Shown here: positions 1 through 35,167 of the stretch, piece after piece
Numbering within the stretch: position 1 is the first letter of the stretch
How the letters are laid out: each line of letters starts with the position of its first letter
Source: a virus
Virus record (IMG/VR): IMGVR_UViG_3300045988_094081
Span: 38,033 to 102,032 of that record
Reading direction: 5' to 3' (one strand)
Length of the DNA: 64,000 nucleotides
Program-made: the position numbers and the translations under genes
The notes under the pieces: generated by a model
Database searches by the model: none
What the model saw: only the letters and a program-made list of their open reading frames with translations
Told to the model about the DNA's origin: nothing

Positions 1-71
1 TTAACGAATATAATTTTATACCGGATGCTTACGGAGATTTAAATGATTTATCAGGCTTATCAAGTTTTACC

Positions 72-2649: not shown

Positions 2650-3669
2650 ATGGAGACAAAAATAACTGAAATAATAGATCCTCACAAGTTACACGACAAG
2701 CTCTTTAAGAAAGAGCAGGTCTCTCCAATAGAAGTTATATACAATAGCTTCAGCAACTTAGGGTATAATGTAGTACGCCGTCCAGCCGGTCAGTGTTTAG
2801 GCAATTTGAGATATTTTAATCTATTTTATGACAAACATACTCATCATTTCTATCAGAAAGACAGGAAGTTGAGATATTGCAGCAACTTTATCATATCTGA
2901 TTACTGGAAAGATAGAGTGCGATGTTTCGTCGTTTGGAACTTTGGCTTTGGAAGATTTTTTCCGTACAATGACTTTATTGAGGCTATGGTTTATGACTAT
3001 CTCCGATATGGAAGAAAGTCAGTTCCTTATCTTAAAAGCGTGCAAGAGGCTGAAGAAAAGTGTGTAAGGTTCTATATCCGGTCTCAGATAGATATGCTTC
3101 GTAAGGAAGGATATGCCGCCTATAGAGCTAAGTTTAAGGAAGAGCGTCCTCAGTATTTCATTGGAGACGATAGGACGGTGTTTAGATGCCTTGATAGCTC
3201 TTTAAAAAGAGAAGAGAAGATTGCCGCATGCGTAGCCCACAAAAGGGCTTTAAAAGAAGGGATAATGACTTCCTTTATCAATCATCTCAAGAAACATCCT
3301 ACCACCTTATATTCGTGGTTCTCGTCAGAGGTGGACGGTCAAGGAAAGAACAGGCTTTGTCTATCTGAAAAAGCCATTAATTATCTTAATAATAGACTGG
3401 TTCGTAATGGGTTAAAGGCTCTTTCTGCATCATATCTTTTTAGAACGTTTAGAAAAATGGTGAAGACCTTGTTCGGTTCCAATGTCAGGTCGTTTTTGAA
3501 TAGCTGTCTGATGTCTGTTTCAACAGAAGAGGTTTTAACCAAATCTATGAAGAAAATAGTTTCCAAGACGGTGCTGTTTTTGTACAGGAAAGCGCTTAAG
3601 AACTATCGTCGGGCATGTGGCCTTAAGTATGATCCTGATTCTGGTGGTTTGTCTGTCGTACATGATTGA
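2650..3669 (+). CDS. Hypothetical basic protein (339 aa)
   Basis: Long ORF with its own TAnnTTTG promoter. No recognisable motif. Confidence 0.6.
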   Translation: METKITEIIDPHKLHDKLFKKEQVSPIEVIYNSFSNLGYNVVRRPAGQCLGNLRYFNLFYDKHTHHFYQKDRKLRYCSNFIISDYWKDRVRCFVVWNFGFGRFFPYNDFIEAMVYDYLRYGRKSVPYLKSVQEAEEKCVRFYIRSQIDMLRKEGYAAYRAKFKEERPQYFIGDDRTVFRCLDSSLKREEKIAACVAHKRALKEGIMTSFINHLKKHPTTLYSWFSSEVDGQGKNRLCLSEKAINYLNNRLVRNGLKALSASYLFRTFRKMVKTLFGSNVRSFLNSCLMSVSTEEVLTKSMKKIVSKTVLFLYRKALKNYRRACGLKYDPDSGGLSVVHD

Positions 3670-3715: not shown

Positions 3716-3723
3716 TATCTTTG
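3716..3723 (+). promoter_or_regulatory. -7 box TATCTTTG (TAnnTTTG) upstream of the 947-aa gene
   Basis: Exact motif. It overlaps the GTG at 3723, which argues that the real start is the ATG at 3738. Confidence 0.45.
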
Positions 3724-3737
3724 TGAAAAAAGATGGT

Positions 3738-6581
3738 ATGAGATTACGAATCATAAAAAATCGTCCGATATTCGCTCCTGGCGGTAGTGTTCAGGATAAG
3801 AAACAGGATATTAATGTATCCTCTACTCAGTCTATTCTTGATTATGGAACGCCTGTTAATAAATGGGGTGAATCTGATATTCAGAATATATATATGCCTT
3901 CTGATGTGATTTTAGAAACAGAGGAGGGGGAGATAAATCCATTTAGTAGTATGCCTACATCCGATCCGTTTTTTGAAAACAATGATGCAGGATATGCAGG
4001 ATATCTCGCTGATAATAGGGGTATGGTTAAAAACGTAGAGAAATCAGTCGTTGATAATACAATGAATGTAGGTGGTGTTGATGCTGATTCCTCTAAAGAA
4101 AAACGTTCCCAAGATGGTAATCCTCTTGATCCTATGACTACCCCATATTATTCACCCGATCTAACCGGCAGAGCTCAAATGTTCGGTACAAGTCTTGGCC
4201 GGATAAGAGCCGGTAATAAGGTCGGTGCTAATGTGGCTCAAGCTGCCTTGTCTGGTGTTAGTTTAGGATTAGGTCTTACCCGTAATATCATGGGAGCTTC
4301 ATCTGCTGCGTATGCAGCCAGCAGAGACGAGCAGGCAGCGAGGGAAAAACTTGCCAAGGAGCGTCGTCAGCAATTCATCAAGTGGGAACGTGAAGGTGGT
4401 GGCGTGAATTTAGGTAACGGTCAGAAGATGGATACGTCTGATATGACCGGCGAATATATTTATCCTCTTCCCAAGTCTATGGAAGATGCTGCGAATGTAG
4501 AGATAGAGAAAGGCGAGTACGTGCTGACTCCTGACTCCGTAGGGCCTATGGAAGCCAAAGGGAACAGACATGAAAATGGTGGCACTCCGGTTGATTTGCC
4601 AGAGGCTTATATTGTTTCCGATTATCGTAAGATAGATGATGAGTTTGCCTCTTACGTTAGAGAAAATTATGGTATTAAGGCAACGTCAAAAGATACGTAT
4701 GCTACACTCCTTGATCGATATAAGAAGAAGATTGGTTTGTCTGATAAGTACGAAGATCAGGAGCGTGTATATAAGAGATTAGAGAAAAATGAAGATGTAA
4801 AAGACAAAAACACATCTAATCTTAATGCTTCTATTCTTTCCAAGTACGTCAATGAAAACCAGAAAGAGATAGACGAGCTTGAAGCACAATTTCGTTCTTT
4901 CGCTGAAATCGTTTATGGCAAACAGGAAGAATCTAAGCGTAACGAGAAGATGGATGCTTTTTTCAGGGATGGCGGGGTTGTTGATCTGAATCAGGTAAAG
5001 AAACAAGCTAAGGCTTTTAATATTGCAGAATCAGATGCTAAGAACTGGATATATGACGAGTATGTTAAGCAAACCAGGAAAATGGCTGAAGGTGGACCTA
5101 CTCAGAAGGAGCTGGAGGAACTTAGAAAGAATGCTATCGGCTACAATAAGCTTATCAATCAGTTATTTGGACGAACTCTTAATATGACTGTATCTGATGT
5201 TAGTGGTCGTGAGCAGATTCTTAATCCTGATTCCAGTGTCAATGCCAACCAGAATCTCCAACATAGAAGCAATTTAGGATACGGCAGGGTAAATGATAAG
5301 GCGGTATCTAATTTGCTCGACATAAACCGATGGGCTAACAAGTACAATACGGATGGTGATTTTGATACAGAAGGTTTCCAGAAAGGATACAACAGGCAAT
5401 TAAATGCATTGTGGGCGTTAGCTGATGTAGGTGCTATCACGAATGCTGATGCAGCCAAGAAATTCAGAGATGAGTACGGATTCTGGGGCCAGGATGCCGG
5501 AAGCTACGGAGGTAATCAGGCTTATAATTCATTTGCCGTAGATGATAAGTTTGGTCAGACAACAGCCACCCGTTCTTATTATGGATTGGACGTTGTTTCG
5601 GCAGAGCAAAAAAGATTGTTAAACGAAAAAGGGATAAAGAATTATGTTGACTTATTTGGTGATAAATCTGATGCCGCTAAGAAGATTCTGGGCTCCGATT
5701 ATAATAAGTTTGTTGCTTTAAGAGATAGTGGGTTAATGCCGGAAATAGACTTCGTTCTTGAGTCTGTTAAACCAGAAATGAAGCCTATTGAGGCCGGTCC
5801 CATAGCACCAGACCTTACACCGCCTAAGATTGGATCTCCTGGAAGGATAGAGGTAAAACCGAAAGCAAGTACGCCTGCGACTGCAACCGACACCGATACA
5901 GAGGAGGTGGTTGAAGACAACGGACCTAAAGGACAGGGCAGACCGGAGGCGTTCGGTCCTATCTTCCCGGAAATGCTAAGAACCCTTGACACTGGCTTGG
6001 AGATAGAAGGCCTGGAAAGACATCAGGCTCCGAGAATAGACCCGGTTCTTCAATCTGCTGATCAGTATATCAACGAGCTCAACCGTGCGACATCGGCTCA
6101 GTTAGACGCAGTAGGTGACGTGCCCGACTCCCAGCGGGCTGCTATTCTGGCTAATATGAACGCCATAGCTGGAAGCAATATAGCCAAGTATGTTAATGAA
6201 GTAAATTTCAATAACGCAAGGCAAATAAACGAAGCTGATAGGTTTAATGAAATGGCTTATGTTCAGACAGATGATAAGAACATAGCAGAAAGGCAACGTT
6301 ATGAATCTGGGTTGTTGAAAGCTATGGCTATAAGGGATGAAAATCTTGCTCGTTATTATGATAGTATAAACAGCGAGATACAGAATAAGTTTAATGTTCG
6401 TACATCGTTGAATACCATAGCTTCCATAGCCCCGAATATGAGAATGCTTCCAAGTGGTCAAATTATTTACGTTCAAGGCAATCAGGATGTGATGAATATG
6501 GGTGATTATTCTACACCTTATTTGAAGAGCTTGGAGGATGATGAAGAAGATAAATATAAAAAGAGAAGGAGAAATAGCTGA
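3738..6581 (+). CDS. Large virion-associated protein (about 947 aa). Function unknown; possibly a structural or ejection protein.
   Basis: The ORF-track start at 3723 is a GTG inside the -7 box, and the first ATG is at 3738. The stop overlaps the next gene's start (TGATG), indicating translational coupling. Confidence 0.65.
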   Translation: MRLRIIKNRPIFAPGGSVQDKKQDINVSSTQSILDYGTPVNKWGESDIQNIYMPSDVILETEEGEINPFSSMPTSDPFFENNDAGYAGYLADNRGMVKNVEKSVVDNTMNVGGVDADSSKEKRSQDGNPLDPMTTPYYSPDLTGRAQMFGTSLGRIRAGNKVGANVAQAALSGVSLGLGLTRNIMGASSAAYAASRDEQAAREKLAKERRQQFIKWEREGGGVNLGNGQKMDTSDMTGEYIYPLPKSMEDAANVEIEKGEYVLTPDSVGPMEAKGNRHENGGTPVDLPEAYIVSDYRKIDDEFASYVRENYGIKATSKDTYATLLDRYKKKIGLSDKYEDQERVYKRLEKNEDVKDKNTSNLNASILSKYVNENQKEIDELEAQFRSFAEIVYGKQEESKRNEKMDAFFRDGGVVDLNQVKKQAKAFNIAESDAKNWIYDEYVKQTRKMAEGGPTQKELEELRKNAIGYNKLINQLFGRTLNMTVSDVSGREQILNPDSSVNANQNLQHRSNLGYGRVNDKAVSNLLDINRWANKYNTDGDFDTEGFQKGYNRQLNALWALADVGAITNADAAKKFRDEYGFWGQDAGSYGGNQAYNSFAVDDKFGQTTATRSYYGLDVVSAEQKRLLNEKGIKNYVDLFGDKSDAAKKILGSDYNKFVALRDSGLMPEIDFVLESVKPEMKPIEAGPIAPDLTPPKIGSPGRIEVKPKASTPATATDTDTEEVVEDNGPKGQGRPEAFGPIFPEMLRTLDTGLEIEGLERHQAPRIDPVLQSADQYINELNRATSAQLDAVGDVPDSQRAAILANMNAIAGSNIAKYVNEVNFNNARQINEADRFNEMAYVQTDDKNIAERQRYESGLLKAMAIRDENLARYYDSINSEIQNKFNVRTSLNTIASIAPNMRMLPSGQIIYVQGNQDVMNMGDYSTPYLKSLEDDEEDKYKKRRRNS

Positions 6582-9500
6582 TGGCTTCACAATATAGTAT
6601 TTTAAGGCAATATGCCCCGTATGTTAGTCCTTACAACATAGATCTTGTTAAGGACGTCATGATGTACAAACAGCAGAAGGTTGATGCTGCTCGTGAAAAG
6701 ATCTATACCCAGGTAGATTATCTTATGGGTCAAGAGATAGATAAGCCTGAAGCCCGCGCTTATATGGAAGATAAGATGTCAGGTGTGATTGCTAACATCA
6801 ATCAAAAATTCAAAGGCGTGGATCTTTCTTCTGATGGTGTTACGAGAGCCATACAAGGAGAGATCAGTTCGGTGTTGGATGATACGGTCATTAACGCGAT
6901 TGCCGGCACAAAAGAAGGCAGGAGAATGCATAAAATGCTATCTGATTTACAAATAAATAATCCAGAACTTTATTCTGCTGCGAATGCTTATGCGGCTTTA
7001 AAGCCGTATAATGAATGGGTGAATGATGGAAAGGCTGGTTCCCGTCTTGCTCCTCTTCAATATACTCCTTATACTGATTATAATAAGGAATTAAAAGATA
7101 GGATAGATTTTATAAGCAAGCTTCATAAAGGAGCTAAAGTTCAGATTCCTATTCTTGACAAGGATGGTCATCCTACCGGGGCAGTACAAGAAGTAACTAA
7201 GGATATGCTTACTCCTGAACAGATAGCTTCTTTTGCATTGTCAGGGTTATCAGATAAAGCAAGGCAGCAGATGCAGGTGGAGGCTATTTACATGGTAGAC
7301 TCTAATCCCTCTTTATATTCGTATGATTCTGTTCTTGGTTTTATGAATAAGCAGATAAGTGATAAGCAGAGGTATGTTGATGCTCTTACTGCCGATCTTT
7401 CCGGTTTGGGTTCTGATCCTGCAAAGAAAGAAATGGTTGAAAATGAAATAAAGAGAGCCAAATCTGAAATAGCTTCCATGAAATCTGAATTTAGCAGAAT
7501 GGATGAAAGGGCTTACGATCCGTATCTTGGAGCGATGAAGGTTATTGAAAATAATTTTATTAATAATGCTGCTGCTTCATATGCTTATGATAATTCGTCT
7601 TTCATAATCAAAGCCGACGAGCTTTACTGGAAAACCAAAGAATATAATCAGAGGGAAAGATTAGCTAATTTGAATTTCGAAAAATGGAAGATAGAATTTG
7701 AATATGAAAGAAATAGGGATATTGCAGAGTTTGAATATGGTAAGAATAAGGATGAAGCCAGATTTGGATTAGACGAAGAACGTCTGAAGATGCAGAATAG
7801 GCTTAATGAAGCCAGAATAGCAAAACTTATGTCCTCTGGTGCAGGAGCGGCAGGCGGCAGAGCTGGAAGCCGAGCCATGCAGGTGGGCGTTGGCACAAAC
7901 TCTGGTGGAACTATTTCAGCTAATCCTATCGAAACTAAAAATATTAGCATATCAGAAGAAACTCATAAGAAGTTTAATAAGGCATATACAGATCTTGTAA
8001 CATCCGGAAGTAGACTATCTACAGCCCTTGGTGCTGAAAACATGAAAAATATTCAAGCTGCCATATCAAGAAATATGACGGATGAAACATCAGGATACAA
8101 GTATCTTATGGATGAAGAAAAACTTCTTAAGTATATAAAGGACAATGGAGGTCTCTCTAATGATATGTTTGACAAGCTACCTATGGCAGAGAGAAAAGCT
8201 GCCACAGATGCTTATATGCAGCTTAATAGCGCTGTAGACAAGATGGATATAGAGAATGATAGAATTAAGAAGGAGAATAAGATTTATGATAATATTGTAT
8301 CTGAAATAGCAAATGCGATCGCGCAGAAGGAAGGAGGTAAACCCGAAGAATATATAGCCTATGCTACAGCGTTATCCCTTAATGATATTTTAAGAAAAAA
8401 TAGAGGTACAGTCGGCGATGTAGAATCTGGAGTAAGATATTATGAAAAAGGATTCTCGCCTGCTGATATAGCTACTATAAGAAAGAGGGTGAAAAATGAT
8501 GGCATTGATTTATCTAAAGTATTTGAGAGGGATAGCAAAAGTGGCAGGTATTTCTTAAAAAAATACGATGATGTAAAAAATAGTTTCTCGGATGGTGAAG
8601 AAAAGGTGTTTTTTAATACACTGTATTCTATTAGCGGAATGGAGAGCGTTGGAGGTGATGTAGTAAGCGATATTAATATAGCCAATCAAATAACTAAGGT
8701 TCAAGATGATGGTATAAATGAGATACGTAAAGAATATCTCGAACTGTATTCACCTAACACAGTAACGTATTCAACCAAATTAACCTCCAAGGAGGCTGGT
8801 TATAGAGAGATGGGTGTTCTCAGGGATCTATTTACTAAAAAAATGGCAGAGCATCCTGTTGGTAAATCTAAATCATCATCGGCAACTATTGAATCATTTT
8901 CTTTGACAGAATCGGGAATAGCCGACAATGGAGAGAAGACTTACAGTTTGGTTGCTAATCATACTGGTGAAAGAGAGGAAATAGATATTGTTGAGGTATC
9001 TGAAACAGAGTTGATAAATAATGGCATAGATCCTGGTATTAATACTCCTTCCGTCGATATAGGTGGATATGAAAGTGGTATTATAAGACCTACATTTGGA
9101 AGTGATACCAATATGTGGTATCCGAAGATGCTTGAAAATTCAGATATATCACCCGCTTATGCTTCTGTATCTTCAATGATGAAAGTGTTATCAGATATGA
9201 TAAATGAATCTGGTAATAATTTAGATGATATGCCAGAACAAAAGGTTTGGCTTCTTAATGCAGCTAAAGATATATTGGATAACAGTGGAAAGCTTGGTGT
9301 AAAGGTTGAAGGTTATGATCCTAAGACAAGTTACGGTTATGGATATGAGACAAGGCTTTATCTTATGGAGAATGGTAAACCTGAGTTAATAGATTCGTTT
9401 GATACTCCTAATGTATGGTTTGCGGATAATGTGTCTAAAGAACTTGCTGTTGCGCCTCAGAAAAAAATAGTTGATTTTGTTGTGGCAGCCATAACAGAGG

Positions 9501-9604
9501 AGATTAAGGATATGGTGGCGGCAAAAGAAGGAGGTAATTTACCTGCGTCTTTGAATAAAAACGGCAAGTTGATGAAGTTGTTGAATAGTGTAAATAGGGA
9601 ATAA
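6581..9604 (+). CDS. Large virion-associated protein (1007 aa), function unknown
   Basis: Long ORF, translationally coupled to the upstream gene and same strand as the giant genes. Confidence 0.65.
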   Translation: MASQYSILRQYAPYVSPYNIDLVKDVMMYKQQKVDAAREKIYTQVDYLMGQEIDKPEARAYMEDKMSGVIANINQKFKGVDLSSDGVTRAIQGEISSVLDDTVINAIAGTKEGRRMHKMLSDLQINNPELYSAANAYAALKPYNEWVNDGKAGSRLAPLQYTPYTDYNKELKDRIDFISKLHKGAKVQIPILDKDGHPTGAVQEVTKDMLTPEQIASFALSGLSDKARQQMQVEAIYMVDSNPSLYSYDSVLGFMNKQISDKQRYVDALTADLSGLGSDPAKKEMVENEIKRAKSEIASMKSEFSRMDERAYDPYLGAMKVIENNFINNAAASYAYDNSSFIIKADELYWKTKEYNQRERLANLNFEKWKIEFEYERNRDIAEFEYGKNKDEARFGLDEERLKMQNRLNEARIAKLMSSGAGAAGGRAGSRAMQVGVGTNSGGTISANPIETKNISISEETHKKFNKAYTDLVTSGSRLSTALGAENMKNIQAAISRNMTDETSGYKYLMDEEKLLKYIKDNGGLSNDMFDKLPMAERKAATDAYMQLNSAVDKMDIENDRIKKENKIYDNIVSEIANAIAQKEGGKPEEYIAYATALSLNDILRKNRGTVGDVESGVRYYEKGFSPADIATIRKRVKNDGIDLSKVFERDSKSGRYFLKKYDDVKNSFSDGEEKVFFNTLYSISGMESVGGDVVSDINIANQITKVQDDGINEIRKEYLELYSPNTVTYSTKLTSKEAGYREMGVLRDLFTKKMAEHPVGKSKSSSATIESFSLTESGIADNGEKTYSLVANHTGEREEIDIVEVSETELINNGIDPGINTPSVDIGGYESGIIRPTFGSDTNMWYPKMLENSDISPAYASVSSMMKVLSDMINESGNNLDDMPEQKVWLLNAAKDILDNSGKLGVKVEGYDPKTSYGYGYETRLYLMENGKPELIDSFDTPNVWFADNVSKELAVAPQKKIVDFVVAAITEEIKDMVAAKEGGNLPASLNKNGKLMKLLNSVNRE

Positions 9605-9607
9605 TAT

Positions 9608-12600
9608 ATGGAAAATAAGGAACAGACATTGGTAGAGAAATCAGGTTTCTTACCATCTACTGGATTAAGAGGGTATAATGCCGTAGTTCCTACGCGATAT
9701 GAAGAAGAATCTTCTCTTATTGAGGGAGCAAAAAGAGAGATGGAGAGGATGAAAGTAGGTTCATATACTCCCCCGGTATCAGCCATAAATCCTGATGATG
9801 ATTCAGAAAAAGGGTCTGATATTAGCGGAATAGATACTTCTTTTGATGTAGACACATCTTTTTCTGGACTAAAATCGGCTCTGAATGGTGGAGATGATCC
9901 AAGAAAGAAGAAAGAGGAGTCTTATAATAAGTTAAATTCCATGATAAAATCTATTCAAGATAAATCAAGGAATACTTATTCTGGTAAACAAACGTCTTAT
10001 GGTGAGGTTATAGCTGGTAATCAACAGTCATCTGCTGTTGATTTTGGTGTATTTGGTAAAGGAAGAACTATTAAGTTAGATGAAGCATATGACTTTTTAT
10101 CCGATGGGAACATCGGTCTTGCAAAGTTTAAAAGTTATATGCCAGGAAGGGATAATGAAGATTATTACGGAAGAAGGCAAACTACTTGGAATAAGGCTGT
10201 TAATGGTATAGGGAAACTTGTCACAAAAACAGCATTATATGGTGTATCAGGAGTAGTAGGTATTATCCCGGCTGCGTATAATCTTATAAAGACTGGTACG
10301 TTATCTTCTGCATTTGACAATGATTTTACACGGACCATAAATGATATAGATGAAAGAATAAACCACTCTCTTCCTCATTATTATACAAGAGAAGAGCGTG
10401 ATATGGGATTTTTGCAGAGTCTTGGAACTGCAAATTTTATTTTTAATGATGTTATTGGAAATGGTCTATCGTTTACGACAGGAGCTATTCTGTCTGCCTA
10501 CCTTACAGGTGGGATGGGCGTGTCAAGTCTTGGAGCTGTTGGCGCTAAAGTAGGGATGAGAGTGGCCGGAAAGATGGCGGCGTCTAAGATTGCGGCAAGT
10601 GCTGTAAAATCAGCTTTTGGAGCGTATAGAGCAGGAGCGATGTACGGCAGGGCTATAGGTAATATGGCCAAGGTAGGAGTAAATACGTTCGTGGGCGCCG
10701 GCTGGGAGTCTGCCGTGGAGGCTCAGTCCTTCATGAAAGACTCTGAAAGTAAATACAAGGAATATTTTAAAAATATGTATGGTCGGAATCCTAATCAGTC
10801 TGAGATGGCTGAATTTAAGAGTTCTATTTCCGATACGGCAAATAGCATATTTTTAGCTAATATGGGTATAGTTGGATTATCCAATTATCTTCTTCTGGGA
10901 AAATATCTTGGAGTAGACACTGGTTTTGCTTCTAAATACATACCTGGATTAAAGGGTGTATCAAACACATATAGGGGATCAAAGAGTTTTGTAGATCGCT
11001 ATTTGTTTGGATTAGGGACTAAGAAGGTAGCGGGTGATGCTGGAAGATTACAGACGGTAAAAGCAAATTTATTCCAGAAATCCTTAGCTACTGTTTGGAA
11101 TGTATCTAAAAGACCCATATCTGAAGGTGTATGGGAGGAAGGCATGCAAGGTGTTGCTCAGCGCATGGGGGAAGATTTTATTAGATCAAGATATGATAAG
11201 ACGTATCTTGATGCTACGTCTTCTATAGTTGATTCTTTTTCTAAGGCCATAGCTGAACAATTTACAACCAAAGAAGGATTGAAAGAGATTGGCATAGGAG
11301 CCCTGATTGGTGGTTTATTTGGAGCCAGAAATGGTGCTTTTGGTTTATATGAAAGGAGAAATAAAGAGCGTACTATTAATACTGATGTTGAGAAATTTAA
11401 TAGTAATAATGCTTTTACTTCTCAATCTGTAAAAGACTCTATGCGAAATTTAGCCGAATTTAATGCTCAAATGAATGATCCTGAATCAGATTATTATTCT
11501 AAATTTGAATTATCTGACAGAATGGGAATGTTAGAGGATACGGCTAACAATTTCAGGTCAATGGTTAAAAGCCTTGACGAAAGTGAGTTGGCTTCTGAAA
11601 TGAAAGTAGATGAAGAAACTGTTAAAAAATACAAGGAAGATATTATAAAAGATTTTGATAAGAAGTTAGCCAATTATAAAAAAGCTTCTTCTTTTGCTGA
11701 GGCTATTACTGCTGAGACTTCATCCGATCTTTATCGATCTAATGTTGCTAATGCTGTGTTTAAGGGGTTGGATGCAGAGGATATAGCAATGGAAGCATCA
11801 AATGATATTGCTGATTATGTAAATGACAATAATTTGTTTGATGATATAAATACGTTTTATTCATTATCAAGTCAAGCTTTTGATACAGCTAATCAGTTAA
11901 GGGAATTGCGTAATGAGATCAATGATCTGAATGCTGAAATAGAGAGGTTGGCTACAACTCCGAGAAGAGTAGAGGATGGCAATGATACCGAAGCAGAGGC
12001 TATAAAACAAAAAACTATTAAATACGATAATCTTAATAAGGAATATAGAAGGTTGTCAGAAGATCTTCTTAGTAGTTATAAAGAAGTATTTTATTCTTTT
12101 GATCCTGGAGTATCAGCTCTTGAGTTGTTTAAATCCGAAACAATAACTGCTGAAGATATATTGAAGGCTTATGACTCTGTTGCTTCTTTAAGCACTTATA
12201 TCGAGAACAATAAGGGGAAGAAAGAAGCAGAGGATTTAAGAAAGATGGTGGTAAAATACCAGCAAGCTATTACCCAATATAAGGTTCTACGGTCATTCAT
12301 GAACTCCATGCAGGATAAGAAATTTATGAGACACGATTTTTCTTTATTCTCTAAGTTCTTAAATGATATAGTGTCATCCGATACCAAGCCTATAGAAAGT
12401 GATCGTTTTTATCAGAACCAGGAAGGAAACAATATCAGTTTAGATGAAAAAATAAATGAACTCCTGAATAATGGTGAAATAGATTCAGATGAGGCATTTA
12501 CAATGAAAGTATTTGGTCATTTAAATGATGGTATAATTCAGAAGCCGAAAGAGGATATATTGTCTGATTTTGATTATGAGTTGGCTATGGAAGATCTTTC

Positions 12601-15600
12601 GTCTGCACCTATAGAGGTTAGAGAACGTATAGTAGACAAGATATATACAGGTAATCAAGATCTTTTATCTCCAAGAGAGAAGGAGATATATGAAAAGTAT
12701 AAACAGGATATTGATGATTATATATCAAATCTTGGTGATAGTCCGGCTAAGATGATAAAAGATTTATCAGATAAAGTTAGGAGACTTACTGAGCCTCGAT
12801 CTGTGTATGAGGATAATAAAGCTATTATTGATATGGCTAAATCCAATTTGGAACCAGATCAAAGGAAGGAACTTGATGATGCTATTTCTTTGTATGTTGA
12901 TATAATGAACAGACGAGATAAAGGGGAGAAAGTTGACGAAGATAAGCTTGCCGATTCGGTATTTACCATAGAAGATCTTGGCCAGGTTGGAAACATCACG
13001 GATCTCCTTCCTTATATCGAACAGAACAGGATTATTGATAAAGGTCGTATTTCCGAATCTACGTTAAGTAATTTTGGGGAGGATGATGCTAATATAGATT
13101 CTCTTGTAAATGAATTAGACGAATCTGATAATACGCCGGGAGCCAATATAGATAGCGCCCAGAATCCAGAGACGTTGATGGTAAGAAGAATCTCCAACGA
13201 CGGCAATGAAAGGTATGAAATTGCCGGTCTTAGAGCCGATAAATTTATATCTTCTATAAAATCATTGGTTCCTATTCAAATAAGCTCTGAAACGAACGCT
13301 AATGGTACTAAAAGGTATTCTCTTAACATAGGTGGAGAAACGGCTACTATAATTGAACTTCCTTATCATGCGAGATGGTCTATAGATAAAGAATCGGCTC
13401 GTGTTCTTAACCGTTACACAGATGTGTCTATTCAGGACGTGGGTAATTCCTATTCTTTGGTTTATAAGCGTCTTGATTCAGATGAGTTGGTTTCGTACAG
13501 AACGGGTGTCGGATTCGGAGAGAATGAAGTAGATAAAATAGATCAGGAAGCATTATCTTCTTTGAAAAAAGGAGATAAGGTTAATCTCGAAATAGATGTA
13601 AATGATACCTATAATCAGTCTCTTTTTGCCGAATACAATGATGCTGTTCAGTCCGGCGATAAAAAAAGAATAGAATCTGCTGAAAATAAACTGGTATCCA
13701 ATATGGTTATTAAGGTTATGAGTGGGAATAGATTCGTTTCTGTTGTAAAAGCTGACACAGGGGGCATAGATGGTATAAGTAAGATAAGAAGAACGGCTTT
13801 CAACAAGTGGAAGAAGGACGCCGGCCGGTCGGCTACCATCAGCGTCGGCACGCATGTTGTTGCCCAGACCCTTCCCGGAAGACCGGTGTTTAACATGAAG
13901 GTGAACGGTCAAGGATATGGCCAGGTAGAAAATCTCCCTATTACCGAAAAAGGTGCTGAAAAAGTATCTGATGTCGGATATGTATTAAATGGCAAAGTCG
14001 TGCTTAAGAACGGCTCTAAATACACAGGCTTCCCATTTGCTTATTCTATATTAAATGACAAGGGGAATAATTACAAAAATGTAAGAGTTCCGGTAGTTGT
14101 CATCAAAGGCAAAAACGGTCTTAATTATCTTTTCCCGGTTAGTCTACGTTCTGTGGAATCAGAGGAAGGAAAGAAATGGATTTCTTTTATAGATATGCTG
14201 CTTGAATCCGGTGACTCTGAATTGTTACAGATGGGTCAAGATGACATACAAGATCTTAATGCGTATCTAACCAAGTTAGGTCTTGATCCAGCTTCGTATC
14301 AAGTATCGTATTTGAATCCTATTTCAGGTCTTAGAAAAGCTCGTGAGGCTATAGAAAAATTATCTACAGTTCCTGATGTTGTTAAGTGGGTAGAAGATGA
14401 AAGTAGGAGTGTGAAAGACATTGTGACGTCTGAAGTAGAATCTGGAATAGATTTCGAAGGTGAGATGTTTGTTGCTCCTAAGATCAGGATTCAGTTTGGT
14501 AAATCATCTTCCAGACCTAAATCACTTATAGAAGATGATCTCCCTTTCTCCGATGAGGGTAAGACCGTTACTTCCAAGGAAGATGTGGATATTTACGAAG
14601 AGGAAATGCCAGAGGAAGACCCTGTCCGGGGGACTCGGCCGGCGCCACCAGCTCAGCCGGCTCCTGCGGCACAAGCTACGCAGTCCTTACATGGCAAGAA
14701 GCGCACCTCCAGAAAAAACTTCTCTCTTATGTTAAACGAAATGGAATCTCATATAGAAAAAGAAGGGTTGCCGCCTTATGCTAATATTTTTGATTTTATA
14801 GCAAGGAAGATTGTAGGAGGTGATTTGAGATTTCTTCGTGAGAGAGGTAATCCTAAAAGTCTTAAGGAGGAAATGGGATTAGAACCTAAAGGAACAGTAG
14901 GTGATAAAATATCCACTCCTTCTAAAAAGGGAGGTAAGACCTTAGAAGAATATGTTTCTTGGCTTCGTTCTCAAACGGATCAGGTAGTAGCGGATTATGT
15001 TGGTCCAAGATCTGACGAACAAATTATATCAGAGTTGAAAAACTTTTTGAAATATATTAATTTTGTTCCAAGCAAGGCTTTGAATTATTCTCTTAGAATC
15101 AATGGCATGGATACCCTAAAAGAATATGGCACAAAAGAGGAAGTAGAAAAAATGGAATCTGACATCAATAGTTTGGTTTCTGAAGTTTTGCCTACGGTAG
15201 ATAATCAAACTGTAGAAGATGTTTCTACTGCAATAGAATCAAATAACTTGCCTGCCATATGGGAGCCCATGGAAAGCCTTGATATGACAAACGAGGAAAA
15301 AATAGAGTTTTTGAATAACGTAGCAGATTTCCTTAGCGGCATTCCAGAGTATGACGCTGTTGTGGAGTCTATAGAGTCAGAATCAGATAATATTTCAAAT
15401 AATGGAAAAGAAGGAAGTGCAGAAGGCGGTGCAGTACGCACTGAGGAAGATGGCGATAAAAAGGGAGATGGAGAAGGCAAAGGACAATCCAGAACAAATG
15501 TCGAAGTTAAAGGAAATGTCGAATTACCTGGATCTAAAGAAGGAAGAGTAGATAACTATAGGAAGAACGGAGATAAGTTCTCTGACATTGCTGAAGTTAC

Positions 15601-16327
15601 CTTATGGTTACTTAGAAGGGCTGCCGGCATAACCTCTATCCCGGAAGGAGAAGAGGTTTATGTAGAGGGAGATGAGGTTAATAGCATTATGACCGATATG
15701 GAATCAAGGTACGGGATAGACACCATCAACCACTCGCATACGACTAAGGCTATAAGGGATCTTAACGGCGTATCAGGTTATAAAGTAGAATACGGCTTAA
15801 CCTTTTTAACATACGATCCTTTTATTAGGATATCCAATCCAAGGAAAGAATCTAAGACTGCAAAAAACGAACCTCGTATATCCGAAGAGCCGCTTATTCA
15901 CATATCAAGGGTAACAACCCCTTATTTCCTGTACGGCGGTGATGAAGCATATACATCTGTTCCGGCTAAGGTAGAACCTATACCAGAGAAGATAATGGGT
16001 CGTAATGGCATTAAATTTGGTATGAGCGTAGTCGAGCTGACCAAATTAGGGTACAAAAAAGCTGGTGGAAACTGGATATACAAATTCTACATGAACTCAG
16101 GTGTTTATGATTTGTATAATATCAGTACCGGCGAAGCGTTTAGAGCAAAACCGGATCTTGGAGTTAAGATAAGTTCCAGCGCATTCATCCGTTCTTTATC
16201 TCAATCTGGTAGAAAAATACAAAATATGATGAGTAACATGAGCCAGGAAGAGATAGATAGGAATAAGAATCTTGTAGAAGGTTCTGATAATTCGGATTCG
16301 ATAAATGAGTTAAATAAGGAGTGTTGA
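9608..16327 (+). CDS. Giant protein (2239 aa), presumed virion/ejection cargo. No polymerase motif found.
   Basis: 6.7-kb uninterrupted ORF. Low-complexity acidic and Pro/Ala linker regions (PAPPAQPAPAAQA, EEDGDKKGDGEGKG). No DxDGD motif. Confidence 0.8.
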   Translation: MENKEQTLVEKSGFLPSTGLRGYNAVVPTRYEEESSLIEGAKREMERMKVGSYTPPVSAINPDDDSEKGSDISGIDTSFDVDTSFSGLKSALNGGDDPRKKKEESYNKLNSMIKSIQDKSRNTYSGKQTSYGEVIAGNQQSSAVDFGVFGKGRTIKLDEAYDFLSDGNIGLAKFKSYMPGRDNEDYYGRRQTTWNKAVNGIGKLVTKTALYGVSGVVGIIPAAYNLIKTGTLSSAFDNDFTRTINDIDERINHSLPHYYTREERDMGFLQSLGTANFIFNDVIGNGLSFTTGAILSAYLTGGMGVSSLGAVGAKVGMRVAGKMAASKIAASAVKSAFGAYRAGAMYGRAIGNMAKVGVNTFVGAGWESAVEAQSFMKDSESKYKEYFKNMYGRNPNQSEMAEFKSSISDTANSIFLANMGIVGLSNYLLLGKYLGVDTGFASKYIPGLKGVSNTYRGSKSFVDRYLFGLGTKKVAGDAGRLQTVKANLFQKSLATVWNVSKRPISEGVWEEGMQGVAQRMGEDFIRSRYDKTYLDATSSIVDSFSKAIAEQFTTKEGLKEIGIGALIGGLFGARNGAFGLYERRNKERTINTDVEKFNSNNAFTSQSVKDSMRNLAEFNAQMNDPESDYYSKFELSDRMGMLEDTANNFRSMVKSLDESELASEMKVDEETVKKYKEDIIKDFDKKLANYKKASSFAEAITAETSSDLYRSNVANAVFKGLDAEDIAMEASNDIADYVNDNNLFDDINTFYSLSSQAFDTANQLRELRNEINDLNAEIERLATTPRRVEDGNDTEAEAIKQKTIKYDNLNKEYRRLSEDLLSSYKEVFYSFDPGVSALELFKSETITAEDILKAYDSVASLSTYIENNKGKKEAEDLRKMVVKYQQAITQYKVLRSFMNSMQDKKFMRHDFSLFSKFLNDIVSSDTKPIESDRFYQNQEGNNISLDEKINELLNNGEIDSDEAFTMKVFGHLNDGIIQKPKEDILSDFDYELAMEDLSSAPIEVRERIVDKIYTGNQDLLSPREKEIYEKYKQDIDDYISNLGDSPAKMIKDLSDKVRRLTEPRSVYEDNKAIIDMAKSNLEPDQRKELDDAISLYVDIMNRRDKGEKVDEDKLADSVFTIEDLGQVGNITDLLPYIEQNRIIDKGRISESTLSNFGEDDANIDSLVNELDESDNTPGANIDSAQNPETLMVRRISNDGNERYEIAGLRADKFISSIKSLVPIQISSETNANGTKRYSLNIGGETATIIELPYHARWSIDKESARVLNRYTDVSIQDVGNSYSLVYKRLDSDELVSYRTGVGFGENEVDKIDQEALSSLKKGDKVNLEIDVNDTYNQSLFAEYNDAVQSGDKKRIESAENKLVSNMVIKVMSGNRFVSVVKADTGGIDGISKIRRTAFNKWKKDAGRSATISVGTHVVAQTLPGRPVFNMKVNGQGYGQVENLPITEKGAEKVSDVGYVLNGKVVLKNGSKYTGFPFAYSILNDKGNNYKNVRVPVVVIKGKNGLNYLFPVSLRSVESEEGKKWISFIDMLLESGDSELLQMGQDDIQDLNAYLTKLGLDPASYQVSYLNPISGLRKAREAIEKLSTVPDVVKWVEDESRSVKDIVTSEVESGIDFEGEMFVAPKIRIQFGKSSSRPKSLIEDDLPFSDEGKTVTSKEDVDIYEEEMPEEDPVRGTRPAPPAQPAPAAQATQSLHGKKRTSRKNFSLMLNEMESHIEKEGLPPYANIFDFIARKIVGGDLRFLRERGNPKSLKEEMGLEPKGTVGDKISTPSKKGGKTLEEYVSWLRSQTDQVVADYVGPRSDEQIISELKNFLKYINFVPSKALNYSLRINGMDTLKEYGTKEEVEKMESDINSLVSEVLPTVDNQTVEDVSTAIESNNLPAIWEPMESLDMTNEEKIEFLNNVADFLSGIPEYDAVVESIESESDNISNNGKEGSAEGGAVRTEEDGDKKGDGEGKGQSRTNVEVKGNVELPGSKEGRVDNYRKNGDKFSDIAEVTLWLLRRAAGITSIPEGEEVYVEGDEVNSIMTDMESRYGIDTINHSHTTKAIRDLNGVSGYKVEYGLTFLTYDPFIRISNPRKESKTAKNEPRISEEPLIHISRVTTPYFLYGGDEAYTSVPAKVEPIPEKIMGRNGIKFGMSVVELTKLGYKKAGGNWIYKFYMNSGVYDLYNISTGEAFRAKPDLGVKISSSAFIRSLSQSGRKIQNMMSNMSQEEIDRNKNLVEGSDNSDSINELNKEC

Positions 16328-16329
16328 GT

Positions 16330-16860
16330 ATGAGAAGGAGATTTTTTAATGCTGCGGATAATTTTGTGGGAGGATGTTATAATAAGTTATCTAATGAAGA
16401 TATAAAAAGGCTTGGAGGAAAAAGACCTTATGTATGTCAGTTTAATAAAATTCATATACATATAGGGCCTGTATTAAAAGATTATGATTCCGAAGAAAGT
16501 TATATAATGTTTAATAGTGATTGGAATCATGGTGGTTATGAATCTATGGTTTATCATCATAGCAATAATGGCATTTTTATATTAGGTGAAAACAAAATTG
16601 GTAATATAGAAGATCATATACAGGATCTAACATATTGGTACGAATATGATCCAAACATTAATGAAAATTATTGTTATTGTTATTATGAAGCTGATAACAG
16701 CGGAAATGCTATTAAGTTGAGCCGTGAGTTTGGTGATGTTTGCACTGTTTTTAATATTCCCAGTTTGAAAGTTACTACTCTTCGTGATGGCGGTTTGAGT
16801 TTCCCAGAGATTTATATAGAAGGAGTTTGGGATTCGTCATTGTATAAGTCGGTTTTATAA
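16330..16860 (+). CDS. Hypothetical protein (176 aa)
   Basis: The ORF-track start at 16321 is GTG. The ATG at 16330 lies 8 nt after an AGGAG. A Cys/Tyr-rich region is present (NENYCYCYYEADN). Confidence 0.55.
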   Translation: MRRRFFNAADNFVGGCYNKLSNEDIKRLGGKRPYVCQFNKIHIHIGPVLKDYDSEESYIMFNSDWNHGGYESMVYHHSNNGIFILGENKIGNIEDHIQDLTYWYEYDPNINENYCYCYYEADNSGNAIKLSREFGDVCTVFNIPSLKVTTLRDGGLSFPEIYIEGVWDSSLYKSVL

Positions 16861-16886
16861 TTAACTTTGCAAAAAAGTTAATTATT

Positions 16887-19145
16887 ATGGGTGTCAAATG
16901 TCAGATAGAAAAAAAGGAAAATGAAATAAAACGGGTTAAGGCTCCTAACGGGGAGCCTTCCGTTCTTTACGAAAGTGCTTTAAAGGTATTAGGAAACAGT
17001 GAGCGGGCTCTTCAGGTATGGGCTAAGGCTTACACTCCTGGTTTTTTGTCGTATTACGGTCATTGGAATAACCCGGCTCCAGGGGAGATGTTTAATACCG
17101 ATCCCAATGGCGAACCTCTTTTAGAAGACGTGCTGTCGTATATGAAGCGTCAGACTTATTTTGCTGATCCTTTAACGGCTCAGGACATTAAGGATGTAAG
17201 GGATTTCCTTTTGTCTACTCATTATTTTTTCAATGCGTCTTCATTGTCTAATGCTATCCTCTTCGATTTTTATGTAGATGGCAGTTTGATACTGAATGAG
17301 CAGAAATTAAGGAGATCCGGTTTGTATGATGAAACAGAGATAAGTCGTATCTTATCCGATCCTTCTGTTTTAAATGAGGTTTCGACTTCCATGAGAAAGT
17401 TAATAGATTGTTCTATTAACGAACATGATAGGGAAAAGGATAATTATTTTATGTCTGTTGACTATCAGTATGGTCCTATTGTTTACAAGGAGGGAGTGTT
17501 TAACCAATTTGGTAAAAAAGTGCCATATAATCCTTCTGAGCTTTATTATGCTATGCGTAAAACAGTAGCCGGCATAAAAAACTTTTCTGAATTTTCATCT
17601 GCTTTTGAATCGTTGAGAAACTCATATCCTGAACTGGTTGAGAAATTCGTTTCTGATAAAGAATTTGCCGAATCTATGTTTGATGAGTTTTCATCTACGA
17701 ATAAGATTCCGGTAATAAACATAGAAGGGGATGATATGGTAGAAGGCAAGAGAAGATCTTTGTCTAAGCTACAAGATCTTTCTTATTACAATTCCGGCAA
17801 AATAGAGTTCCTAAGAGCTCGTATATCAGCTTATTTACATAGGGTTAATGCCGACACCGAATCCGATTTAAGAAGCATGATATGGGATATAGAAGAGGCT
17901 TGTACGTGGTTTGGCATAGATATAATAGGGACATCGGAAACTTATGATGGCACAGAAGAATCTTTGAATAAGATAGATAATTTGATGCTGGATCTTGATA
18001 TTTATGTGGCCAGGCACAATGATGTAAATTATGCTCCTACGTTGGCATCTTCTATTGATGATGTTCTTGGTGATAGTACAGACTATTATTTTGGATTATT
18101 GCCGGAGTATATGGATAATTTGAATATCGTTTATTCTGAATCCAATATAGACCCAGTAGAAGCATTTGAGAAACATTCATTGCTTAAGGTAGGAGATAAT
18201 CTATATCAAAGGATCAGCAAAGATGATCTTAACGAGATGTATCAAATATCAACAGTGTTAGCCAAGCACAACCTAACTCACTTTCCTGCTAAAATATATC
18301 CTGAATCTTGTTTTAAGAACGGCGTTTTGGATAAAGAGAAAGTACGGAACGTAGATGATAATACGCTCATGGATTCCATTAAAAAATACGTCAGATCGTT
18401 CATGGATTCTCAGAACACGGAGGACATGGTAATGACCAGGATGGCGTTTGGGCATCCGGCGGTACTTGATGTTTCTTACGCGGATGTGGATCGGGAATTT
18501 AGTCGGTACATGAACAAAAAACAAGATAGCGAAAACCCATTATCCTTATTCGATTTATACCAATATTACCTTGACAACAAACTCCATAAAACAAAATTAT
18601 ATGATAATGCCTATAAGTATCTTGACTTCAAATCTGGTCCATCTTTGGGTCTTATTTCTGATGATCCTGATATTTTGAAATCAATAGAATTATCTTTATC
18701 TGGAAAAGACAGGTTGATGTTGTTTGATTATAGCATGACCAGCACCGACCCTTTTTTATCAAAATTGTTTTATTTGGATAGGTATGACCCTTCGTATGCC
18801 GAGAATGATTTTGAACACTATTTTTACACCAGGCACCCGTATCTGTTAAAAGAAAAATCGGGCCCTAATATCGTAGAGCAAGATGGTGTTATAACAGCCG
18901 AAGGTATTTATGATAATTTTATAAGAGTAGGTAATAAGATATGGTCTAAAGTAAGCGAAAGTAGTTCCGGCTCTATCTACCAAAATCTGACAGGGACCGA
19001 ATCGGAGGTGAAATACGATTCTACCCAGAAGGCTAAGACAGTAGAAACCGATTACGCTCCATACCAAAACAGATCTGGCTTGACGCAAGACATGACTGTA
19101 AGCAAGTCTGAATTAGGTGATCTTAATAAATTAGAATGTAGGTAA
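16887..19145 (+). CDS. Large hypothetical virion-associated protein (752 aa)
   Basis: Long ORF, last gene of the giant-ORF run, followed by a cluster of terminator hairpins. Confidence 0.7.
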   Translation: MGVKCQIEKKENEIKRVKAPNGEPSVLYESALKVLGNSERALQVWAKAYTPGFLSYYGHWNNPAPGEMFNTDPNGEPLLEDVLSYMKRQTYFADPLTAQDIKDVRDFLLSTHYFFNASSLSNAILFDFYVDGSLILNEQKLRRSGLYDETEISRILSDPSVLNEVSTSMRKLIDCSINEHDREKDNYFMSVDYQYGPIVYKEGVFNQFGKKVPYNPSELYYAMRKTVAGIKNFSEFSSAFESLRNSYPELVEKFVSDKEFAESMFDEFSSTNKIPVINIEGDDMVEGKRRSLSKLQDLSYYNSGKIEFLRARISAYLHRVNADTESDLRSMIWDIEEACTWFGIDIIGTSETYDGTEESLNKIDNLMLDLDIYVARHNDVNYAPTLASSIDDVLGDSTDYYFGLLPEYMDNLNIVYSESNIDPVEAFEKHSLLKVGDNLYQRISKDDLNEMYQISTVLAKHNLTHFPAKIYPESCFKNGVLDKEKVRNVDDNTLMDSIKKYVRSFMDSQNTEDMVMTRMAFGHPAVLDVSYADVDREFSRYMNKKQDSENPLSLFDLYQYYLDNKLHKTKLYDNAYKYLDFKSGPSLGLISDDPDILKSIELSLSGKDRLMLFDYSMTSTDPFLSKLFYLDRYDPSYAENDFEHYFYTRHPYLLKEKSGPNIVEQDGVITAEGIYDNFIRVGNKIWSKVSESSSGSIYQNLTGTESEVKYDSTQKAKTVETDYAPYQNRSGLTQDMTVSKSELGDLNKLECR

Positions 19146-19191
19146 TTTTCATGTAATATAATTAGTTTTTTTTACATTTACACTTCTGGGA

Positions 19192-19220
19192 GTGAGGCTT
19201 GTGAAAGTCTCACTTTTCTT
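19192..19220 (+). terminator. Hairpin GTGAGGCTT...AAGTCTCAC followed by TTTTCTT
   Basis: Read directly; 9-bp stem with one mismatch, then a T-run. Confidence 0.45.
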
Positions 19221-19649: not shown

Positions 19650-19688
19650 CAGGGTTCGCAGTGATGCGGGCCCTGGTTTGTTTTACAG
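19650..19688 (+). terminator. Hairpin CAGGGTTCGCA-GTGA-TGCGGGCCCTG (G-U wobble pairs at the RNA level) followed by GTTTGTTTT
   Basis: 11-bp stem if read as RNA with two G-U pairs, followed by a T-rich tail. Confidence 0.45.
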
Positions 19689-19732
19689 TGCTTTACCCAA
19701 AATGGGAAAGGCAAAAGTTTATGATTATCAGG

Positions 19733-19765
19733 TTTTCCCCTTAAATGGGGGAAAATTAATTATTG
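19733..19765 (+). terminator. 8-bp perfect hairpin TTTTCCCC-TTAAAT-GGGGAAAA
   Basis: Read directly. A T-rich tract follows after a short spacer. Confidence 0.35.
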
Positions 19766-19899
19766 TGTATTATACTTCCGTTTTTGCTGAAAATACTTCT
19801 CTTCTATAGGAAACAAACACACCTGTATTCCACCCTGCAATCATGATCTTTGTTACGTGCTTCATGCACGTATGTTTAACAATTAAATACTATAAAATT

Positions 19900-34135: not shown

Positions 34136-34139
34136 AATT

Positions 34140-34868: not shown

Positions 34869-34872
34869 AAAA

Positions 34873-34910
34873 ATAATTATGGCACCAAGAACTATTGGTG
34901 CCATAATTAT
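34873..34910. terminator. Bidirectional intrinsic terminator between the convergent gene blocks. It is a 13-bp perfect stem (AATTATGGCACCA-AGAACTAT-TGGTGCCATAATT) flanked by an A-run and a T/A-run.
   Basis: Read directly; it sits exactly between the last + gene (stop 34868) and the last - gene (stop 34910). Confidence 0.65.
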
Positions 34911-35167
34911 TAAAACCGTTTCTTGTAACAAGAGTCCACTACCTTTACCTTTTCTTCTTTGTTCTTACCATAATTAAATTCATACGCATCTTCGAATGAA
35001 TAAAAAACAGCATAACACGACATGCCAAACATATCGTATTTTATCCTGTTTTTCCATTTCCCAAAAATGTTTTGATATTGGCACCAATATTCTACTTCCC
35101 CATTAGTTAATTTCCTTTCAACTATTCTAAGAGGAATATGAAACAAGTTTCTAAGCATTAACTTCAT
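34910..35167 (-). CDS. Hypothetical protein (85 aa)
   Basis: ORF; it overlaps the upstream gene by 17 nt. Confidence 0.4.
   Translation of the reverse strand: MKLMLRNLFHIPLRIVERKLTNGEVEYWCQYQNIFGKWKNRIKYDMFGMSCYAVFYSFEDAYEFNYGKNKEEKVKVVDSCYKKRF

Follow-up and report, generated by a model that had tools for sequence, protein, structure and literature searches.

A probable internal cargo module in an epsilon crAss-like phage, with an apparently polymerase-free protein in the virion RNA polymerase slot

Introduction

Among the viruses of the human gut, the crAss-like phages are the most abundant, and their hallmark is an RNA polymerase that is injected together with two partner proteins. Here, we describe a block of very large open reading frames (ORFs) in the virus record IMGVR_UViG_3300045988_094081 of IMG/VR. 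The DNA analyzed was a stretch of 64,000 nucleotides (positions 38,033 to 102,032 of the record, hereafter the window) out of a genome of about 150 kb. At positions 3,738 to 19,145 of the window the block encodes proteins of 947, 1007, 2239, and 752 aa (p947, p1007, p2239, and p752), and a related protein of 2140 aa (p2140) is encoded further downstream. An earlier note, made from the letters of the window and its ORF list, had likened the block to the cargo or ejection-protein modules of podovirus-like and crAss-like phages, left its function unassigned and called it potentially novel.

In phage crAss001, gp47, gp49, and the virion RNA polymerase (vRNAP) gp50 were found by mass spectrometry (MS) as internal cargo proteins (PMC10172136). 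In phi14:2, g065-g067 (gp65-gp67) are virion proteins, which in some phages form a single fused polyprotein (Drobysheva preprint). The polymerase of phi14:2, gp66, carries its connector, second barrel with DFDID, bridge helix, and trigger loop within residues 1095-1636 (DFDID at 1361, bridge helix at 1529-1559, trigger loop at 1598-1636), and the catalytic aspartates are essential (Drobysheva preprint). Accounts of the epsilon group differ. According to Yutin et al., this group lacks the transcription gene block (Yutin et al., 2021; PMC7886860). For crAssE-Sib, an epsilon crAss-like phage whose genome has been published (Babkin et al., 2024, Viruses 16:513, PMC11054128), Table S1 of that paper labels the homologue of p752 a 'DNA-dependent RNA polymerase', on an HHpred match to phi14:2 gp66 of 95% probability and 46% coverage.

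Results

The window phage is, as judged by nucleotide similarity, an epsilon crAss-like (Epsilonunovirus-like) phage of a known lineage: a 20-kb query matched crAssE-Sib (OR575929) with 95.7% identity over 67% of its length, and the annotation is collinear. The block homologues are labeled 'structural protein' or 'hypothetical protein' in the GenBank record of crAssE-Sib. A further comparison was made with phi4:1, whose gp041-gp035 block is gene-for-gene syntenic and homologous with the window at 21-31% identity (Table 1), the listed phi4:1 proteins each being annotated 'virion structural protein ... experimental MS/MS' (tandem MS). Virion presence by MS/MS also applies to both phi14:2 g067 and phi4:1 gp038, the homologues of p2239. 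By these homologies, the block proteins were shown to be orthologues of virion-packaged proteins from cultured relatives. Specifically, p2239 is the orthologue of crAss001 gp47, phi14:2 gp67, and phi4:1 gp038. Its gene lies directly upstream of the vRNAP slot, as do those of gp47 and gp67, its product matches phrog_32390, and tblastn found matches in the gp47-like 'RNA-polymerase subunit' genes of IAS, cr128_1, and cr85_1. The orthologue of crAss001 gp49, phi14:2 gp65, and phi4:1 gp035 is p2140, which matches phrog_37651 'virion structural protein' and has hydrophobic segments near its C-terminus. The window thus holds two of the three 'transcription block' proteins together with the occupant of the RNA polymerase (RNAP) slot. 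We consider it quite probable that this epsilon crAss-like podovirus encodes its internal cargo (ejection proteins) in the block. The homology of p2239 to gp47/gp67 and the synteny with MS/MS-identified virion proteins of phi4:1 bear out what the earlier note had surmised on this point; its coordinates had left out the third partner, the gp49/gp65-like protein encoded at 26883-33305.

The same order (lysozyme, X, p947-like, p1007-like, p2239-like, slot protein, p2140-like) was found in 14 distant metagenomic loci, where the p2140-like gene lies directly 3' of the p752-like gene. Six of these 14 loci encode a fusion protein in which the p2239-like N-domain is joined to a gp66-like RNAP with G[AS]DFDID. 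Such fusion ORFs, joining a gp67-like N-domain to a gp66-like RNAP in environmental phages (L060, L063-L065, L067, and L068), exceed 3750 aa, hold 0-2 cysteines, and run off the ends of their loci.

Table 1. Features of the window in order of position, with matches of the encoded proteins.
Feature	Position	Strand	Description	Matches
Lysozyme protein (tail), C-terminal part	1..1898	+	Frame open from base 3, cut by window start	phi4:1 gp041 (annotated 'tail protein')
p339	2650..3669	+	Cysteine-rich (9 Cys); TAnnTTTG at 2622, 28 nt upstream	
Bacteroidetes-type -7 promoter-like motif TAnnTTTG (TATCTTTG)	3716..3723	+	22 nt upstream of p947 ATG	
p947	3738..6581	+	947 aa from ATG at 3738; 952 aa from GTG at 3723	phi4:1 gp040 (E 5e-29)
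p1007	6581..9604	+	1007 aa	phi4:1 gp039 (E 2e-14)
p2239	9608..16327	+	2239 aa	blastp: phi4:1 gp038 (E 2e-67); crAss001 gp47 (E 7e-14); phi14:2 g067 (E 4e-8)
p179	16330..16860	+	Small variable cassette with cysteine, between p2239 and p752	
Bacteroidetes-type -7 promoter-like motif TAnnTTTG (TAACTTTG)	16862..16869	+	25 nt upstream of p752 ATG	
p752	16887..19145	+	752 aa; occupant of vRNAP slot	phi4:1 gp037 (hidden Markov model, HMM, E 1e-32); phi14:2 g066, N-terminus only
Terminator-like hairpin	19188-19217	+	13-bp stem, strongest found; 3' of p752 stop; consensus scan only	
p2140	26883..33305	+	2140 aa; downstream of block, third module member	blastp: phi4:1 gp035 (E 5e-86); crAss001 gp49 (E 5e-18); phi14:2 g065 (E 2e-4)

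The gene for p752 takes the place of the vRNAP gene (gp66 or gp50), and the structural homology of p752 is to the non-catalytic N-terminal part of that enzyme only. The AlphaFold2 (AF2) model of p752 (predicted local distance difference test, pLDDT, 83) is mainly helical, and its only significant fold match in the PDB was vRNAP gp66 (6vr4). In BFVD, the best named matches after the phi17:2 orthologue were first-half chunks of crAss-like RNAPs, and chunk one of a cr111_1 protein named 'putative RNA polymerase' was also matched; the phi14:2 RNAP matched p752 with chunk _1 at E 1.9e-5 and with chunk _2 at E 0.14. The catalytic vRNAPs (g066 with DFDID, gp50 with DFDVD at 1483) match one another, whereas window proteins are matched at the N-terminus at most. 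No D.D.D motif, as in the catalytic DFD[IV]D, occurs anywhere in p752. Neither the phi4:1 homologue nor the larger relatives checked has a DxDxD, bar a non-matching DSDND near the C-terminus of L062, and the residues invariant in the p752 family include no acidic triad. The two double-psi beta-barrel domains, connector, bridge helix, and trigger loop of gp66 (~900-1640) were not recognized in the modeled p752. We conclude from these comparisons that p752 is a putative stand-alone homologue of the non-catalytic N-terminal module of crAss vRNAP, and not a polymerase. Pfam found no domain in p752 and has no model for the module itself, and a profile search of the p752 family against PDB sequences gave nothing significant. 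Weak collinear HMM matches of p752 to the C-terminus of gp66 (independent E-values of 0.1-0.6) were not used. No RNAP besides the p752 homologue is present in the gene table of crAssE-Sib, and a scan of ORFs from the remaining genes of the window, including the replication module on its minus strand, showed none. In phi4:1 (L069 13785-21195), the p752 profile is divided between two genes that overlap by 17 nt, with positions 90-172 at the gp038 C-terminus and positions 197-709 within gp037; a frameshift, a programmed event, or the past fusion of the two could account for this split.

The p752 module is widespread. When 1.84 billion representatives were searched with its profile, 801 clusters were recovered, 346 of them at E<=1e-30. 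The module forms an entire protein of about 750 aa, makes up the first ~690 residues of larger proteins (1100-3072 aa) that have one to four HExxH motifs and no DFDxD, or is split into N(1-55) and C(71-750) parts around inserts of 700-1500 aa with LPD23 domains. Relatives in BFVD include proteins annotated ART-PolyVal and helicase. Judging from the models, gp66 is itself of the second architecture, with the module at its N-terminus and the RNAP core as payload. To look for a relocated core, the window was searched with the central inserts of the larger p752-like proteins, and no match was obtained. Since these inserts occur nowhere in the window, the epsilon p752 would therefore be a carrier devoid of payload.

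Two proteins, p947 and p1007, are encoded ahead of p2239. In p947, a basic N-terminus followed by GG precedes a Gly-rich hydrophobic helix (162-187), a CW_7-like motif, and a basic C-terminal tail. The CW_7-like, peptidoglycan-binding motif comprises residues 579-623 (nt 5472-5606) and was recognized by a profile match to the Cpl-7 CW_7 repeats (PDB 5i8l, E 1.5e-6), the only match of the p947 family in PDB sequences; p947 also matches phrog_36695 'virion structural protein'. Its AF2 model was uninformative (pLDDT 42). The sequence DGDFD at residues 539-543 of p947 was rejected as a cryptic catalytic motif; it varies among homologues of at least 54% identity and is absent from distant ones. The earlier note had found no DxDGD signature of a crAss-type virion RNAP, and indeed, this lone unconserved DGDFD apart, the block holds no conserved DxDxD or DxDGD. 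Conservation of p1007 is confined to its N-terminal ~230 aa, and it has no relatives in PDB, Pfam, or PHROG. With cargo proteins C1 and C2 of crAss001 (gp45 and gp46), p947 and p1007 share position, size, and lack of cysteine. C1 also has a Gly-rich transmembrane-like helix near residue 150, and helix 162-187 of p947 resembles the predicted transmembrane helix of gp45 (140-158). In hhalign comparisons, the p947 and gp45 families gave a best P of 0.0024 (probability 12%) and the p1007 and gp46 families a P of 0.31, against 94% for the positive control (gp45 family vs. g069). By gene order, p947 and p1007 occupy the C1 and C2 positions, but profile homology is only suggestive for p947 and gp45 and was not detected for p1007 and gp46.

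The part of p2239 conserved across the gp47/gp67 family is an N-terminal domain of residues ~150-620 with four Gly/Ala-rich hydrophobic segments (204-227, 277-317, 406-434, and 561-579), whose positions are conserved across p2239, g067, gp47, and gp038. The N-terminal ~65 aa of p2140 are homologous to the N-terminus of p752 (p752-family HMM 4-67 vs. residues 4-69, E 2.7e-8), and the same N-terminal module is matched in crAss001 gp49, phi4:1 gp035, and gp66. No significant match of p2239 or p2140 to PDB sequences was found with single sequences or profiles, Pfam detected no domain in any of the four block proteins, and the zincin motif HExxH, which gp65 has, is absent from all block proteins of the window.

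The cargo proteins are also united by where their cysteines lie. The lysozyme protein, p947, and p1007 are cysteine-free; in about 110,000 residues each, 5 cysteines were counted for the p947 family and 7 for the p1007 family. In p2239, the single cysteine is the last residue (C2239, nt 16322-16324); in 13 further lineages, a p2239-like protein has a cysteine as its last residue or within its last five, mostly as the sole cysteine in 1700-2500 aa. Two terminal cysteines are conserved in p752, C5 (nt 16899-16901) and C751 (nt 19137-19139), and p752-like proteins and vRNAPs alike have a cysteine at position 3-5 and another at or near the C-terminus, as in gp66 (MACK...QECK); C5 and C1951 are the sole cysteines of a 1952-aa relative (L058). 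Of 148 family representatives, 144 have a cysteine in the first 8 residues and 145 in the last 6, and 125 have no other. Internal cysteines occur at a frequency of about 1e-4, as against 1.6% in the other proteins of the phage. Proteins of the gp49/gp65/p2140 type have a cysteine at 3-5 (Cys5 in p2140, nt 26895-26897), the sole one in cr128 gp052 and cr85 gp054, and the gp67-gp66 fusion proteins are equally poor in it, as noted above. Immediately adjacent to the cargo genes, in contrast, a 354-aa protein with 18 cysteines is encoded at 19843-20907, which is named 'spike protein/glycoprotein' in crAssE-Sib (phrog_16490). Across lineages, acidic residues precede the cysteine of the tails of p2239 (..INELNKEC) and p752 (..DLNKLECR), and basic residues usually precede that of the heads of p752 (MGVKCQI) and p2140 (MVSTCII), which suggests that tails and heads may be complementary docking peptides. 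Terminal cysteines of the cargo are not mentioned in the key crAss cargo papers, and a broad literature search was uninformative; the signature appears to be unreported.

As to the gene map, the four ORFs claimed by the earlier note were all confirmed in the ORF list, and they are real genes, because each has hundreds of homologues and their synteny is conserved in distant phages. The TGATG overlap of the p947 stop and p1007 start at 6579-6583 (translational coupling) is likewise present, and the p1007 stop lies 3 nt ahead of the p2239 ATG. The picture of a single contiguous run did not hold in full: a fifth ORF, p179, and a likely promoter stand before p752. Motifs of the form TAnnTTTG occur 12-31 nt upstream of p339, p947, p752, an ORF at 26418, and p2140; a promoter role is assigned to them from the motif only. 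The block would thus probably comprise two transcription units, p947-p1007-p2239-p179 and p752. A sigma-70 promoter scan gave counts at chance level and was set aside, its consensus being unsuited to a Bacteroidetes host. The statement that the block has no internal terminators stands insofar as terminator-like matches within it are only weak, and needs amending for a 9-bp GC-rich hairpin at 16938-16959 (AAGGCTCC...GGAGCCTT), which falls in the p752 codons for the near-invariant APNGEPS. Upstream, the double-lysozyme protein was verified as well, with Pfam PF18013 (Phage_lysozyme2) matching in two stretches (E 3.8e-31); the full-length protein has about 806 aa in crAssE-Sib. Pfam and PHROG searches found no match for p339, which is probably outside the cargo set, and no family for p179, whose sequence is unrelated to that of the ORF at the same place in crAssE-Sib.

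Nucleotide similarity to crAssE-Sib, elsewhere 89-98%, is lost at 7095-12628, from within p1007 through its C-terminal part and on across ~1000 N-terminal residues of p2239, and again at 16342-16853, over p179. On this comparison, the two gaps look like mosaic replacement within the cargo genes. The crAssE-Sib homologue of p2140 is recorded as two overlapping ORFs of 281 and 1885 aa (L001 32316-33161 and 33061-36993) where the window has a single 2140-aa ORF, which suggests a frameshift or sequencing error in that record. An antirepressor gene of crAssE-Sib (L001 24667-25773) is absent from the window (19685-19776). A 700-nt gap 3' of p752 holds two TAnnTTTG motifs and hairpins and no long ORF. 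Within the replication module, a protein with SPFH/Band 7 and flotillin domains is encoded at 43767-45467 on the minus strand, among genes for an SNF2 helicase, DnaB, a PD-(D/E)XK nuclease, and DUF6371/Zn-ribbon proteins. GC skew and AT skew change sign at ~34000-35000, exactly where the coding strand switches from plus to minus, and no tRNA was found by a scan of the window.

Discussion

It is conceivable that p752 is a functional, highly divergent virion DNA-dependent RNAP, and the block a complete crAss-type transcription module. The HHpred result of Babkin et al. and the occupation of the gp66 gene slot favor this explanation, and we reproduced the structural homology to 6vr4. However, p752 has 752 aa as compared with 2180-2412 aa in vRNAP enzymes, its model is mostly helical with no acidic triad among the invariant residues of the family, and the aspartates that are essential for catalysis in gp66 have no DxDxD counterpart in p752 or in the family members checked, including those of 1400-3000 aa. 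Moreover, BFVD matched p752 to the first half of gp66 and not to the half with DFDID, bridge helix, and trigger loop. A divergent polymerase is thus very unlikely in our judgment, and the published label of the p752 homologue is not supported. A second possibility is that the large proteins are external tail parts, such as fibers, spikes, or tape-measure-like proteins, rather than internal cargo. The neighboring lysozyme protein matches PHROGs labeled 'tail length tape measure protein', phi4:1 gp041 is called a 'tail protein', and MS/MS of virions is blind to inside and outside. Nonetheless, the PHROG tape-measure matches are limited to the lysozyme domain of that upstream protein, and Pfam, PHROG, and PDB profile searches revealed no fiber, spike, beta-helix, or tape-measure domain in p947, p1007, p2239, or p752; tape-measure or tail-fiber proteins of a described family were the alternative that the earlier note had named. 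In addition, the gp47 and gp49 orthologues have been located to the cargo zones inside crAss001 and do not appear in its resolved tail structure, and extreme cysteine depletion together with largely helical or low-confidence predictions fits proteins that unfold to traverse the tail. An external location therefore strikes us as very improbable.

More weight may be given to the idea that these are mainly injected effectors, i.e., polyvalent proteins for anti-defense or host takeover that do not primarily build a conduit, with enzymatic functions in p2140 and in ~1500 aa of p2239. Relatives of p752 carry zincin (HExxH) motifs, LPD23 domains, and ART-PolyVal and helicase annotations typical of polyvalent proteins, and gp65 has a zincin motif. 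The block proteins of the window, on the other hand, contain no enzymatic domain or HExxH, and conservation across families lies in the hydrophobic N-domain of p2239 and in terminal modules, not in effector-like domains. We regard an effector role as rather unlikely to be the principal one; it overlaps with a role as ejected cargo and does not exclude it. A number of points nevertheless weigh against our own interpretation of the block as a cargo module with a carrier-only p752. Virion packaging in the epsilon phage is extrapolated from homologues of 21-31% identity. The wall and membrane roles of p947, p1007, and p2239 are suggested by composition and one short motif, and the domain-free ~1500 aa of p2239 and ~770 aa of p1007 could hold enzymatic functions. 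The assignment of p752 to the 'N-terminal half' of gp66 comes from BFVD chunk labels and the N-terminal blastp/HMM match, and it found no support when the p752 family was compared with a gp66-family alignment in a crude local hhalign run (probability 0.3%). We treated the latter as a limit of the crude gp66-family alignment, as two structure comparisons agree. Finally, an RNAP may be encoded elsewhere in the ~150-kb genome, beyond the 64-kb window.

If the block is an internal cargo module, host-type promoters would drive late synthesis of its proteins, which would then be packaged in the cargo zones of capsid and tail. At infection they would be extruded unfolded through the tail, before the DNA. 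The tail lysozyme and p947, with its peptidoglycan-binding motif and Gly-rich helix, would act on the cell wall, and a conduit would be formed by membrane insertion of two hydrophobic regions, the Gly/Ala-rich N-domain of p2239 and the C-terminus of p2140. The 'carrier' module p752 would elsewhere pull an effector into the cell (in classical crAss phages this would be the RNAP core, and in marine relatives polyvalent enzymes of the zincin/LPD type), and in the window phage it would carry no payload. How such a cargo is ordered may be hinted at by the cysteines. We tentatively propose that p2239, p752, and p2140 are linked head-to-tail in the virion via their conserved terminal cysteines, by disulfides or a shared metal. 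Such linkage is suggested because one, two, and one terminal cysteines follow the gene order, so that the C-terminal cysteine of p2239 may pair with Cys5 of p752 and Cys751 of p752 with Cys5 of p2140. Inter-protein disulfides have been seen by cryo-EM in crAss001 virions. With cysteine links in place of peptide bonds, the three proteins would again form the polyprotein for which other phages have one continuous ORF. During ejection they would pass out of the virion as a single thread in a set order and come apart in the reducing cytoplasm, and the near-total loss of other cysteines would prevent mis-linking. In its broader form, the proposal is that crAss vRNAP is one member of a large 'carrier-module' cargo family, of which epsilon phages keep the carrier without payload; taken jointly with the cysteine chain, we hold it to be possible rather than probable.

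The gene module is not categorically new. What had been called potentially novel has a near-identical published counterpart in which the p752 homologue is named an RNAP; the novelty that survives is that of an informative variant, with a carrier-only RNAP slot, an unsupported RNAP label, a carrier family, and a terminal-cysteine rule. This lineage would have kept the partners and the front module of the polymerase, and not the enzyme. The absence of the transcription block from the epsilon group and the claim that crAssE-Sib encodes a virion RNAP can therefore be reconciled, with correction of the latter. If p752 lacks a payload, the phage would follow a different early-infection strategy, in which transcription would begin with, and the first transcripts depend on, the host RNA polymerase. 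Most of gp66 is reportedly new fold space; its N-terminal part can now be identified as what appears to be a widespread delivery module common to polyvalent proteins. The terminal-cysteine rule offers an idea of how a megadalton protein cargo could be ordered and released at ejection.

Among described systems, crAssE-Sib is closest to the window; its ORFs 93-98 correspond to the block in gene content and order, and most of the block is ~96% identical to them in nucleotides. Like the window, phi4:1 and phi17:2 (Lightbulbvirus) have no DFDxD-bearing RNAP in the block, and phi4:1 differs by the split of the p752 module across gp038/gp037. The genes for crAss001 gp45 (C1), gp46 (C2), gp47, gp50 (vRNAP), and gp49, and phi14:2 g069-g065, follow the order of the window: muzzle/tail genes, two mid-size Cys-free proteins, the gp47-like protein, the RNAP slot, and the gp49-like protein. 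The terminal-cysteine pattern is also common to the cargo of all three phages. Unlike crAss001 and phi14:2, the window has the N-terminal module in the RNAP slot, with no catalytic core, and no zincin motif; it further differs from them in that a gene for a lysozyme protein and an island of small genes (~7.7 kb) are interposed. Polyvalent proteins (Iyer et al., 2017; Pfam LPD families) are related through the p752 module, which stands at the front of many giant proteins that combine several enzymes and have LPD23 and zincin-type motifs. Whereas those combine multiple effector or LPD domains in one polypeptide, p752 of the window is without an effector domain, and Pfam found no domain in p752, p2239, p947, or p1007. 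The earlier note had advised remote-homology searches against crAss cargo and T7 ejection proteins, which yielded crAss cargo relatives for p2239 and no relationship to the latter. Indeed, although no sequence or fold relationship was detected between the block and the ejectosomes of T7 (gp14/15/16), P22 (gp7/16/20), and N4 (gp50-52), the proposed logic is the same, in that capsid-stored proteins would be ejected ahead of the DNA to build a trans-envelope channel, and N4 also delivers a vRNAP.

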